This document shows positions 7,330-11,877 of a stretch of DNA of 64,000 nucleotides, one piece after another. Under the pieces are notes generated by a model. That model worked only from the letters and a program-made list of their open reading frames with translations, was not told the origin of the DNA and did not search any database. Every line of letters starts with the position of its first letter. Within the stretch, counting starts at the first letter, position 1. This stretch comes from a virus. The stretch lies in the IMG/VR virus record IMGVR_UViG_3300027714_000005. One strand, written 5' to 3'. The position numbers and the translations under genes are program-made.

Positions 7330-7531
7330 ATCTGTCGTAAACTGTTGTTGACTCGTTCACTTTCTTGGGGATACAATAGGCTGTTACCATTGTGTTATGA
7401 TGAATGTTCTTATGTTGTCCATGAACAAGGGCATGGGCATAGTCATTACACACATGAATACTACGGAAATACATATCTTGAGATATGATATCCCCCTGCA
7501 CCATTACCATAAGTAGGAATGCGTGTATCAA
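7328..7531 (-). CDS. small hypothetical protein
   Basis: 67 aa, hydrophobic N-terminus, FRSI..C and AYCIP motifs; ATGA overlap. Confidence 0.65.
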   Translation of the reverse strand: MIHAFLLMVMVQGDIISQDMYFRSIHVCNDYAHALVHGQHKNIHHNTMVTAYCIPKKVNESTTVYDR

Positions 7532-9123
7532 CCAAATGCCACTCGATCTAGGTCATCTGTAGCCGGAGACGCATCACCATACACTGCACTACTCTGAGAG
7601 TTGTTAGTAGTGGTTGGTGCACTTATGTTCTGTACTGCAAGATTACCACCACCTGATGCCGACATATTTTCAACGTCATTTCTACCAGTGGATAATGCTT
7701 CCAACTTACGACCACTCCTACCTGATCTTTCCATTGGTATAGTTGGGATGGTTGAAAGTTGAGACTCTTTCTCCTCGGTGTTAATTTTGCTGACTTTTAC
7801 AGTTAACTCTGGAATCTCACTTTGACTAACTTTCTGTGCAACAGGTAACTCTGGAATCTCACTGGTGCCGACTTCACCTTTACTCAGTCTTTCTGCCTTT
7901 ACCTTCTCTTGCTTCTCATACACAGATGCCTTGAACTTCTCTGCTCCATTAGTATCCATCAATTCTGCGTTTTCAAGGTTCTTGACAAAATCTGGTACTT
8001 TAATACCCAATTTCTCTAATAGTCCACCACCTAAACCTGCCAACTTCTGTGCTATTTTAATAAAGAAGTTGCCAACAACAGCAAGTCCATCTTTCATATG
8101 TTCGACACCTAACAACATAACATCGAACACACTATCAAAACCTAGTGCATTTTTGACTTTGTTTAGTAATAATGCGATACCCGCAATTGCGAGACCGACT
8201 CCAATAATAATAGGGAGGAAAGGTGCAAGTGCAAACGACATAGAGGCAACGGCAGTCATCAATGCGGGAACCAATGTGCCCATTGTAAACACAGTTATTG
8301 CTAAGTATCCGGCTCGCAGGAACTTAACTGCCGTACCAAGTTTCGATAATACACCAGTCACCATACTCATCAAACCTTTACCAGTAGCAATCATTCCTAA
8401 CTGTAGTGCAAGGAGACCTGCACGTACTATTTTAACCGCATTAATGATTTTGATGAAGACAAAACCGGCAAGGAAGGCACCACTGAGTAGTACAAAACCG
8501 TTCATTATCTCTTTAAAGTTATTACTGATGAATGGAAACACGGTCTCTTTGAAGAAAGTAAAAATGCCTTCAGTAGCAGGAAGTATCTTCTCTTTGACAA
8601 ATTTCTTGATACTATCAAAGTTCTTTATCATTACACTGAATACTTTAACACCAACAATACCAAGAGCAAGTTTAGCAAGTTTCATGAGAAAAGAAGGGGT
8701 CTTGATTGGGCCACCAATCTCTTTCTTTCCATCAGCAAATTTTTCACCAACAGACTTATTTGCCTCTGCCTCTTTAGCGACTTCCTTTGCGTCCATTTTG
8801 TCTTGTTTTGATTGCAGTCTATCAGCAACTCTTGCTGCATTGGTATCATCTAGTGTAGCTATTTGAACCATTGTCTGTGATTTAATCAGGTCACCAAAAG
8901 CAGCCACCTGTAATTCTTGAGCAGCACGTTCATCACCCTCTGCCTTTGCTAATGACACAAGTTCAAGATTTGTTTGATGTGATTCGGCAGCATTCTTTGC
9001 CAGTTCAGCATTCTTAGCAGTTAATAGTCGTAACGCAGCTAGACTCTCGGTATCAATCCTAATACCTTCTTCCAGTAGCGCTTCTTCTCTTTCTGCTTTT
9101 ACTTGGTCTTCTCTTTTTGCCAT
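7528..9123 (-). CDS. tape-measure / baseplate hub protein (gp29-like)
   Basis: 531 aa: coiled-coil N-terminus, central hydrophobic/amphipathic helices, low-complexity C-terminus; follows gp54-gp26-gp51. Confidence 0.6.
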   Translation of the reverse strand: MAKREDQVKAEREEALLEEGIRIDTESLAALRLLTAKNAELAKNAAESHQTNLELVSLAKAEGDERAAQELQVAAFGDLIKSQTMVQIATLDDTNAARVADRLQSKQDKMDAKEVAKEAEANKSVGEKFADGKKEIGGPIKTPSFLMKLAKLALGIVGVKVFSVMIKNFDSIKKFVKEKILPATEGIFTFFKETVFPFISNNFKEIMNGFVLLSGAFLAGFVFIKIINAVKIVRAGLLALQLGMIATGKGLMSMVTGVLSKLGTAVKFLRAGYLAITVFTMGTLVPALMTAVASMSFALAPFLPIIIGVGLAIAGIALLLNKVKNALGFDSVFDVMLLGVEHMKDGLAVVGNFFIKIAQKLAGLGGGLLEKLGIKVPDFVKNLENAELMDTNGAEKFKASVYEKQEKVKAERLSKGEVGTSEIPELPVAQKVSQSEIPELTVKVSKINTEEKESQLSTIPTIPMERSGRSGRKLEALSTGRNDVENMSASGGGNLAVQNISAPTTTNNSQSSAVYGDASPATDDLDRVAFG

Positions 9124-9135
9124 GTCTGTCCCATT

Positions 9136-9330
9136 TTACTTACGTTGTTGTTCTTCGTGTCTTTGTTTCTCCTCCTCTAACCATTGTTCTAGGAGGGTTA
9201 CATAAATCTGCCTCTCCCACGGCATCATGTTGTCAAGTTCAGTTAACGAATAACTGTAGTTGTGCATCATAAAGAAGTTAGTCTTATAGTGATTTACAAG
9301 ACTATCGTGCGAGAGGTTTAGGAAAAAAAA
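9136..9330 (-). CDS. gp51: gp51-like baseplate hub assembly protein, probably the -1 frameshift extension of gp26 (first Met at 9270)
   Basis: Manually read FFFLNLSHDSLVNHYKTNFFMMHNYSYSLTELDNMMPWERQIYVTLL...; the YSLTEL.NM.PWER.IY motif is characteristic. Confidence 0.8.
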   Translation of the reverse strand, partial: FFFLNLSHDSLVNHYKTNFFMMHNYSYSLTELDNMMPWERQIYVTLLEQWLEEEKQRHEEQQRK

Positions 9331-10034
9331 TCTTGTAGTCCTTTCAGTTCGTGTTCATTCTCTTTATCACATTTTCCACAAGTCCACTTGACATCCAATG
9401 CTAAAGATGGAATGTGACTCAAGAACTCTCCGAGTTTATCAAACTGTTGTCTGGTCATCGAGTCAATAAAATCTTTTACTTCTTTTACTGGTAAATCTTT
9501 GATGATAACTCGTTCATCTGGGGTCAACACTGCTTCAATGGACTTTGCCAACATAGTGAAACCAAATTCTACGGACTCATCATCACCTTGTTTATAGTTA
9601 TTAACCACTTCACCATATGCAGGGTATTTCATCTCAACCGAAATGTCTTCTGAGAGTTCAATGAGTGATTGGTTATCGGTCATCTCGACCTTTGCATTCA
9701 TGACATTAATAGTAACTTCAGTCTTGTGGCCACACTCCTCGTCATTACACGAGATGGAAATGTCTGAAGTCTCACCTACGGATCGTCCACGAATCTGTGT
9801 GAACATATACTCAACATCAAATGTTGTCAGTGATTTAACATTTGTGTTACTTTCAACACAAGCATCAATGGTCTTCGCCATCACTTCCATCATCTGTTGT
9901 TGATCACCAGTCTCGTTGGCAATCATCATTTGTTTTTCTTCTTTGACCAAATAGGGTCGGTATGTTACTTCTTCCCCAGTTGATGGTACTGTCAGTCTAT
10001 AGGTGTTGGTTACGTTTAACTTAGGTAATGCCAT
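9318..10034 (-). CDS. gp26: baseplate hub assembly chaperone gp26-like
   Basis: MALPKL..Y.L.VPSTG..V.YRPYLVKEEK, FD.EY.F..IR..SVGE, two Cys pairs, C-terminal GL.DFF. Confidence 0.9.
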   Translation of the reverse strand: MALPKLNVTNTYRLTVPSTGEEVTYRPYLVKEEKQMMIANETGDQQQMMEVMAKTIDACVESNTNVKSLTTFDVEYMFTQIRGRSVGETSDISISCNDEECGHKTEVTINVMNAKVEMTDNQSLIELSEDISVEMKYPAYGEVVNNYKQGDDESVEFGFTMLAKSIEAVLTPDERVIIKDLPVKEVKDFIDSMTRQQFDKLGEFLSHIPSLALDVKWTCGKCDKENEHELKGLQDFFS

Positions 10035-10058
10035 TATATTCTCTCTAATAATAATATG

Positions 10059-10760
10059 TTATAAAAACTTTCTAATCAGTTCGCCTGCGAGACCTTCAAT
10101 AAATCCAGTATCTTTTGCGTCACCGCCTTTGGACTTCCAGTTCTTGTATGATAGTTGTACCGTCACTTCAAGTAACTGTCCGTCATCACTCAGATCAATT
10201 GCAACTAATGAAGTTGGGTATGCTTTATCTAGGACTATTGTATATGTGATATCGTCACCGAATATCAAATTTAAATCTAACTCACCTTGTGCAAGGTCAA
10301 TCGGCCCTAGTCTGGGTAATCTTGAACGTAACGATGAAGGAATCTTACCAGCATCGTATAGTTGTGTTTTCTTAATGGGGAAAGATGTACCCCTCTTAAT
10401 GTGTTGAATGATTACTGGATGGGTGTACTCGTTAAAGTATCCCACTTCGTGAGTCTCTTGGTTGACCGCAAGGTTTTGCCAAATCTCAAAGTATCTCCGT
10501 ATCTTCATATCATTAAGACAATGGAATGTCAGGGTAACGTCTTCGATTGCGTGACCGTATGCTGTCTTACTTGTTTCTAAACCAATAGTTCGTTCGGTAG
10601 ATAGTATTTGTCGGCCGGGCAGTGATGTTGCCTTACACAACAGGTTCATCTCTCGTGCGTCACCTGTTAACGGTGGTAGGAAAATCTTAAACAGATTCCC
10701 CATTGCCATGCCACCACCTTTACCAATCTGTGACTTGAATTCATCGATACGTGCTACCAT
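10059..10760 (-). CDS. gp54: tail tube initiator / gp19-like paralog (gp54-like)
   Basis: Tube fold motifs F...I...GG.A..NLF, LLC...SLPG, FE.WQ, AYPT, VTV.LSY. Confidence 0.75.
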   Translation of the reverse strand: MVARIDEFKSQIGKGGGMAMGNLFKIFLPPLTGDAREMNLLCKATSLPGRQILSTERTIGLETSKTAYGHAIEDVTLTFHCLNDMKIRRYFEIWQNLAVNQETHEVGYFNEYTHPVIIQHIKRGTSFPIKKTQLYDAGKIPSSLRSRLPRLGPIDLAQGELDLNLIFGDDITYTIVLDKAYPTSLVAIDLSDDGQLLEVTVQLSYKNWKSKGGDAKDTGFIEGLAGELIRKFL

Positions 10761-11353
10761 TAACCTTTACCTATCTTTTGTCTTGAATCGTAGAACACCT
10801 TCTGAGAGTTTGCCTTACGGAACTGTGCGGTTGGTAAGAATGTTGCAATCTCCCACTCAGGTTGTGGTACTTCCGCAAACTTACTCTTGACGTGTGCATT
10901 CAAGTAATGTTTGAAACATGGTTCGTAGTATCGCAACTTCGCAATACTCTGTAATTTCTTATAGTTGATAGCAAACTTTGCATCTTCGTTTTTATTACTA
11001 GCAGAAGTCTCCATCAACGCATCCAACATCTTTGCACGAAGGATAGGTGGAAGGTAGTGAAGGTTCAATCCATAAAACCCACCCTTTGCAGGGCCAACAA
11101 CAATAACCAAGGGAAACAAATCGTAATACGGAAGTGTGTCCTTAGTCTTGGGGTCATAGAAGAACATCTGCATTGTTCCCACAACACCACTCTTTGTACG
11201 ACTCTTTAGTTGTTCCTCTTTCATCAATGCTTCACGATTGATGGAACGCATATTAGATGCTTTCTTTTGGAACCACTCACGACTTTCCTTAGTACGGGGA
11301 GTTACTCCCGCACGGAATGCTTGTAGTTCTAGTCTGTTGAATATATTACTCAT
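10760..11353 (-). CDS. gp2: DNA end protector protein gp2
   Basis: FFYDPKTKDTLPYYD.FPLV, GF.GLNLHYLPP..R, EW..A.FLPT..F. Confidence 0.92.
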   Translation of the reverse strand: MSNIFNRLELQAFRAGVTPRTKESREWFQKKASNMRSINREALMKEEQLKSRTKSGVVGTMQMFFYDPKTKDTLPYYDLFPLVIVVGPAKGGFYGLNLHYLPPILRAKMLDALMETSASNKNEDAKFAINYKKLQSIAKLRYYEPCFKHYLNAHVKSKFAEVPQPEWEIATFLPTAQFRKANSQKVFYDSRQKIGKG

Positions 11354-11367
11354 AGTTCTATTTATAC

Positions 11368-11877
11368 TTATTTTTTACGTTTCTTACGAAAAGGTTTTAA
11401 AGTTTTACCTAAAGGTTTCAACGGTTTGGTTGACTTAGGAATGATACTCTTCAGAGGTTCGTTCTTCTCCGTCCATATAACAAACTTCCATCCACGTTCC
11501 TCTGCGTACTCCCTTGCGGCATCCCACTTATTTATATTCTTAACATAGGTAAAACTTTCGGTTAGATATCGTCTGGTGTTCTTACTACCAGTCGGTATCC
11601 TAGTCTCCTTGTCTGGTTTGATCTCTACCAAGAAAGTCCTACCACTGGCCATCACCAACTTCATGTCCATAAAATATCTATGATAACGCTTGTCAACCTC
11701 ATATAAGTATGGTATAATGACTTCTTCGGATGACCACTTTACTACGTCAGGGTTACCATCTGCCCACTTGAATGCGTGTTTCTCCCACCCAGACCTATAG
11801 GTGACCTTTGTATGATCTCCCTCGTACTTCGATGGATTCTTTACGGTGTATATACCAGAATGTGTTTTAAATGCCAT
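11368..11877 (-). CDS. gp4: head completion nuclease gp4 (TnsA-like)
   Basis: NPSKY.GD...YRS.WE, W.SEE..IPY, HRYF.D, EIKP, KW.AA. Confidence 0.92.
   Translation of the reverse strand: MAFKTHSGIYTVKNPSKYEGDHTKVTYRSGWEKHAFKWADGNPDVVKWSSEEVIIPYLYEVDKRYHRYFMDMKLVMASGRTFLVEIKPDKETRIPTGSKNTRRYLTESFTYVKNINKWDAAREYAEERGWKFVIWTEKNEPLKSIIPKSTKPLKPLGKTLKPFRKKRKK

Follow-up and report, generated by a model that had tools for sequence, protein, structure and literature searches.

In phage lambda, the chaperone gpG and its rare −1 frameshift product gpGT have a common N terminus and are encoded just 5′ of the tape measure gene, and the slippery sequence there is G GGA AAG, unlike the T run described here. 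The pair is reported to have been studied by Levin et al. in 1993 and by Xu et al. in 2004, 2013, and 2014. Phage P2 is said to possess a contractile-tail chaperone pair, gpE and gpE+E′, that results from −1 shifting at a T-rich run (work attributed to Christie et al., 2002); by sequence, gpE belongs to a protein family different from PF12322, the family considered here. The lambda gpG/gpGT system has been reviewed (PMC5009743).

T4 gp26 and gp51 are known as hub assembly chaperones, and gp51 was reported to be absent from particles (PMC3004832). Genes 26 and 51 of T4 are adjacent and divergently transcribed. Vladimirov, Gautam and Davidson (Virology 2022;566:9) reportedly identified the gp26/gp51 genes as those of T4-like tail chaperones. 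A passage of PMC10885494 that cites the 2022 paper states that frameshifting is replaced in some T4-like phages by two genes, a short one and a fused long one, and a passage of PMC12846349 that cites Vladimirov et al. 2022 describes poly-T tracts as known −1 signals in T4-like TAC-N genes. Going by these two passages, the principle of a frameshifted T4-like tail chaperone appears to have been published in 2022, and an earlier note on the DNA analyzed here, which had held the arrangement to be undescribed for T4-like phages, is out of date in this respect; as biology, the identification would date from that year and is no longer new. In the open literature on a gp26/gp51 frameshift or chaperone, we found no paper describing the slip itself.

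Here, we analyzed a stretch of viral DNA of 64,000 nucleotides (the window), the chaperone gene of which is an unannotated member of this group from an uncultured marine T4-like phage. The gene belongs to the same family as those of the 2022 paper and has its poly-T signal at the end of TAC-N, as in the passage of PMC12846349. The explanation that we prefer, with a probability of roughly two in three, is that this one gene gives rise to a short chaperone of 238 aa and, through a ribosomal −1 slip, to a long form of 299 aa that is the counterpart of T4 gp51.

Layout of the locus and family membership

The features of the locus are as follows.

11368-11877, minus strand: gp4-like head closure protein
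10760-11353, minus strand: gp2-like DNA end protector
10059..10760, minus strand: T4 gp54-family protein with a tube fold (baseplate tail tube initiator, 233 aa), directly 5′ of the chaperone gene, phrog_45 match
9318..10034, minus strand: short form (TAC-N), gp26-like, 238 aa, zero-frame product, PF12322 and phrog_150
9136..10034, minus strand: predicted long form (TAC-NC), gp51-like, 299 aa, via a −1 shift at 9330-9324
9339..9344, minus strand: SD-like AAAGGA, 9 nt 5′ of the heptamer, a candidate stimulator
9324..9330, minus strand: slippery heptamer U UUU UUU in the X XXY YYZ register, the T run continuing to 9323
9318..9320, minus strand: zero-frame stop TAA, one codon past the heptamer
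9136..9324, minus strand: −1 extension, gp51-like C-domain, 62 codons and a TAA at 9138-9136, phrog_634
9279..9304, minus strand: hairpin with a 10-bp stem and a 6-nt loop, doubtful as a stimulator
9268..9270, minus strand: first ATG in the −1 frame, taken as the start of "gp51" in some GenBank relatives
7528..9123, minus strand: tape measure candidate, 531 aa, with a hydrophobic Gly/Ala-rich center (Atlas lead)

The gp26-like ORF ends with CAA GAT TTT TTT TCC TAA, in which the T run is 8 nt long (9330-9323) and the first seven residues form the in-frame heptamer T TTT TTT. The stop-to-stop frame 9354..9136 on the minus strand is the −1 frame of this ORF, such that a tandem slip on the heptamer would join 237 + 62 residues into a protein of 299 aa with the predicted junction ..GLQDFFFLNLSHD.. 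The first Met of the −1 frame is found at 9270; ATG, GTG, and TTG are all absent between the slip site and this position, and an SD-like motif was sought upstream of ATG 9270 in the window with a negative result. The earlier note had described a slippery heptamer at the end of gp26 with an open −1 frame down to 9136, which proved exact on re-reading; its statement that the gp51-like sequence begins before Met 9270 with no evident RBS agrees with the lack of both a start codon and an SD-like motif, and the 299-aa fusion that it placed beside the 238-aa protein is the product given by the predicted slip.

Both frames matched known families. The 238-aa protein was assigned to PF12322 (T4_baseplate) at 3.1e-56, with 190.9 bits against a gathering cut-off of 24.5 in the Pfam HMM search, and to phrog_150 ("baseplate hub") at 1.1e-59 in the PHROG search. 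The −1 frame had two matches, to phrog_634 ("baseplate hub assembly catalyst," gp51) at 9e-26 and to the tail of phrog_150, at positions 228-278 of 282, the latter indicating that some phrog_150 members carry this segment fused in frame.

The neighboring genes yielded a more mixed picture. The upstream 233-aa protein matched phrog_45 at 7e-31, a family to which T4 gp54 also belongs (1.2e-65), and it showed a weak Pfam match to Phage_TTP_2. The gene that the earlier note called "tube-like" thus encodes an initiator of the gp54 family, with a tube fold, and not the main tube protein. For the downstream 531-aa protein, Pfam and PHROG searches returned no family match, and BLASTP detected no similarity to T4 gp29; an Atlas feature search placed it at 0.94 to a cluster carrying PF25671 (T4_Tape_measure), which serves as a lead only. 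Two further observations concern the surroundings of the locus. For the gp4-like head closure protein, there is a further Pfam match, at 3.5e-18, to the nuclease-like fold Tn7_TnsA-like_N. In Melnitz and phiM7, an extra ORF of 110-140 aa lies between the chaperone extension and the tape-measure-like gene (L004 1716-2045; L005 1690-2109), which the window and the cyanophages do not have.

When this layout is set against that of lambda G/GT, the likeness consists in a short form and a predicted rare −1 long form with a common N terminus, encoded just 5′ of the (candidate) tape measure gene, although sequence similarity between the two systems is not detectable. The window phage differs from lambda in having a contractile tail, where the tape measure doubles as a component of the hub, and in that the upstream gene encodes a gp54-type initiator rather than the major tube protein.

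Conservation of the proposed slip site and alternative routes to the predicted second product

To place the site in a wider context, a set of 93 loci was assembled from the window, five GenBank relatives, and 87 IMG/VR loci, the gp26 proteins of which are 34-98% identical to that of the window. All 93 loci contain an in-frame T TTT TTN located 0-3 codons ahead of the stop, followed by a homologous −1 ORF; the slippery run and the −1 overlap, which the earlier note had singled out for comparison across relatives, are therefore both kept throughout. The heptamer reads TTTTTTT in 59 loci, TTTTTTC in 28, TTTTTTA in 5, and TTTTTTG in 1, and the T run is six residues long in 34 loci, seven in 21, and eight in 38. 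The codon before the heptamer is GAT (41), AGT (34), TCT (10), AAT (6), GCT (1), or GGT (1), that is, six forms encoding five amino acids with T at the third position in every case, while the TTA and TTG variants replace Phe with Leu and retain the six T's. An invariably T-ending preceding codon, together with Leu variants that keep six T's, indicated that selection acts on the nucleotides and not on the protein. Of the 49 other FF dipeptides in these genes, only 4 are spelled T TTT TTY. A naive codon-usage calculation gives a probability of ~1e-28 for the heptamer pattern, a figure that is overstated, for the loci are related and not independent.

A homopolymer of this kind could also be read in another way, namely, that RNA polymerase adds one U on the T run in some transcripts, giving the same 299-aa protein. 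The slip site consists of T's alone, eight in the window and six to eight in the relatives, and one added U would place the 3′ sequence in the −1 frame with an identical junction. However, appreciable slippage by bacterial RNA polymerase needs a run of roughly 8-9 or more, and 34 of the 93 loci have only six T's, with none above eight. In addition, the X XXY YYZ register is invariant and the preceding wobble position is T even when the run extends 3′, an argument that is partly confounded by the conserved FF. The zero-frame stop follows the heptamer immediately in 35 loci and after one codon in 55, thus lying 0-1 codons off in 90 of the 93. Since the register and the adjacent stop matter to ribosomes and not to the polymerase, transcriptional slippage fits these loci poorly, and we regard it as unlikely.

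The ribosomal slip that we prefer requires the −1 frame to be translated from the heptamer onward, and the alignment columns that separate the heptamer from the first common Met bear directly on this. In these columns, the encoded protein is conserved (L 0.87, H 0.95, L 0.94, N 0.95, F 0.99), and the third codon positions have high entropy. Judged by this pattern, protein-level selection on the −1 frame begins at the slip site, before any Met is reached. Furthermore, a P[WFY]E motif is located exactly 34 residues past the heptamer in 89 of 89 complete loci.

These data also bear on the possibility that there are two separate genes, with the gp51-like frame translated alone from ATG 9270 into a 44-aa protein and no fusion being made. 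A Met occupies the position of ATG 9270 in 84% of the loci, and GenBank relatives are annotated with short CDSs (41-53 aa) named "baseplate hub assembly catalyst," as such a scheme would have it. Nevertheless, the 17-18 codons between the slip site and this Met are those conserved as protein with third-position variation; ATG, GTG, and TTG are all missing from the first 19 codons of the −1 extension, the pre-Met stretch, in 16 of the 93 loci, and in five loci no Met appears before residue 31-32 of the extension, in the middle of the conserved core. Likewise, SD-like 4-mers are found ahead of 78 of 88 gp26 starts but, for the −1 frame, ahead of the first ATG in only 5 of 84 loci, and T4 gp51 itself is a full N-domain fused to the extension segment. 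Taken together, the pre-Met conservation, the missing start codons, and the rarity of SD-like motifs indicated that independent initiation is not the general route, and we consider two separate genes very improbable.

That the locus is a pseudogene, or one fused gene in which sequencing misread the length of the homopolymer, can practically be discounted: some sequencing chemistries are error prone at homopolymer runs, but independent assemblies with T6, T7, and T8 among the 93 loci all require the same −1 shift with the zero-frame stop kept right after it, which excludes an assembly error, and an IMG/VR contig 98% identical to the window (L007) carries the identical site.

Correspondence with T4 gp26 and gp51 and predicted folds

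To relate the two predicted products to the T4 proteins, the family composition of the latter was compared with that of the window type. T4 gp26 (208 aa) consists of PF12322 alone and corresponds to the short form. T4 gp51 (249 aa) comprises a complete PF12322 domain (residues 1-201) and a C-terminal tail matching phrog_634 at 1.2e-23, and a profile of the window-type extension aligned with gp51 residues 204-244 at an hhalign E value of 8e-5. When the proteins were multiply aligned, colinearity between T4 gp51 and the predicted fusion extended through the junction, and T4 gp26 ended at the same point as the short form. The end of T4 gp26 keeps the FF dipeptide, which is encoded there as G TTC TTT, a nonslippery sequence, and so provides a natural control in a protein that requires no slip. 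It looks as if the slip site was disabled in T4 once gene 51 had become separate. We noticed as well that the end of T4 gene 26 (L006 3803-3850) retains the GL.EFF motif.

Gene counts followed the same division. Four complete relatives, namely, a Synechococcus phage of Acionnavirus, S-CAM4, Methylophilales phage Melnitz, and Sinorhizobium phiM7, carry one PF12322 gene apiece, and T4 carries two. Within the 64-kb window there is a single copy, and the second full-length gene of the T4 type is absent from it. Thus, T4 has two genes and no slippery site, whereas the window has a single PF12322 gene with T TTT TTT. On this comparison of genes and sites, T4 gets its short and long forms from two paralogous genes, and the window type would get them from one.

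One evolutionary scenario would be that ribosomal −1 frameshifting is ancestral in T4-like phages and that genes 26 and 51 of T4 are a later hard-wiring of the two products into two genes. The invariant register, the run of at least six T's, the stop 0-1 codons on, the SD-like element 8-11 nt 5′ of the heptamer, and the TTC TTT of T4 are the grounds for this idea, which we put forward tentatively and as rather improbable; it is conditional on the 2022 paper either having argued for a nonribosomal route in single-gene phages or having omitted the marine clade.

Structure prediction was carried out on the two parts of the long form separately, first on the 238-aa protein and then on the 62-residue extension (AF2). 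The short-form model, built from a 71-sequence alignment, had a pLDDT of 85 and a pTM of 0.80. When it was compared with 48,161 chains by VIA-align, the top three matches over residues 1-95, all of them tail assembly chaperone structures, were 3fgx (Z 7.9), 2ob9 (Z 7.2), and 3klu (Z 7.0), followed by the next match at Z 4.9, and a Z of 7-8 is, by the tool's own warning, in the range that common arrangements can reach. Of these, 2ob9 is the tail assembly chaperone of HK97 (85 aligned residues, rmsd 5.4), and 3klu is YqbN of a Bacillus subtilis prophage. A Foldseek search of the short-form model against the PDB returned nothing at an E value of ≤0.001, 2ob9 being found there with a probability of 0.63 and an E value of 0.9, and an HMM search against PDB sequences gave no match. 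With moderate confidence, these models suggest that the N-domain of the short form has a tail assembly chaperone fold, resembling in its predicted form the HK97 homologue of the lambda-type chaperone. The −1 extension was modeled as three helices with a pLDDT of 82.

A side observation concerns cysteines. The C-terminal half of PF12322 contains nearly invariant cysteines (C-x4-C ... C-x2-C in the window; residues 96, 219, and 222 of the 238-aa protein, window 9218-9328), and VIA-align weakly matched small proteins of the zinc-ribbon type. A zinc-binding module is thereby suggested, one lost from cyanophage members such as L001.

The earlier note had proposed that these genes encode tail assembly chaperones like G/GT, and that proposal is supported by the colinearity with gp51, the slippery heptamer, and the structural match to a chaperone. 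In the mechanism that we propose, the gp26-like gene would yield the short tail assembly chaperone of 238 aa as the major form. A minority of ribosomes would slip back by one base on U UUU UUU, where both Phe-tRNAs could re-pair, and these ribosomes would bypass the TAA two codons on and append 62 residues to produce the 299-aa protein as the minor form. From the analogy to lambda G/GT and T4 genetics, the N-domain shared by both forms may coat the tape-measure/hub protein encoded just downstream, and the three-helix C-domain of the rare long form may recruit tube-fold proteins, so that the assembly of hub and tube would start correctly. By the same kind of analogy, both the short and the long form would be expected to be absent from the virion. 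The ribosomal nature of the slip, its efficiency, and the binding partners are what we infer for the window phage.

Annotation of the locus and candidate stimulators

GenBank records up to 2025 contain either a separate "hub assembly catalyst" of 41-53 aa or nothing at the position of the extension, and the slip is not annotated in them. Several RefSeq cyanophage records leave ~180 nt unannotated after gp26 (L001 3714-3895; L002 1504-1683; L003 1504-1685), and others call a "baseplate hub assembly catalyst" of 41-53 aa from an internal Met. A ribosomal slip at this locus would account for the appearance of "gp51" as a start-less mini-ORF or an unannotated gap in hundreds of genomes of cyanophages and marine T4-like phages. 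It would also close the one apparent gap, that of the T4-like phages, in the near-universal occurrence of a frameshifted tail chaperone among long-tailed phages. Its practical value lies in annotation, in which the separate CDS would be replaced by a ribosomal-slippage join.

Both sides of the heptamer were then inspected for elements that could stimulate the slip. An SD-like AAGG, GAGG, or GGAG is located 8-11 nt 5′ of the heptamer in 80 of the 93 loci. Such an element may act as a stimulator, as in Escherichia coli dnaX, although it is confounded by conserved (K/E)-G residues encoded at the same place. The production of dnaX gamma/tau, with its −1 slip on a homopolymer-like heptamer and an SD-like element ~10 nt 5′, is similar to the arrangement in the window. 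In contrast, dnaX has a strong downstream hairpin at canonical spacing, and the window loci have no conserved one: RNAalifold over 88 loci gave no consensus structure downstream of the heptamer. The hairpin in the window (9304-9279) begins 19 nt past the heptamer and has a folding energy of −10 kcal/mol (z −2.2), and its stem is 63% paired across the loci versus 30-45% in slid controls. It is only partly conserved and is doubtful as a stimulator. Finally, in the MFE fold of window positions 9311-9345, the purine-rich AAAGGA 5′ of the heptamer pairs with CCTCTC 3′ of it, and cyanophage loci show similar GAGGG...CTCC(T)TC pairs; the 5′ and the 3′ element alike also encode conserved residues, which makes a role for the pairing doubtful.
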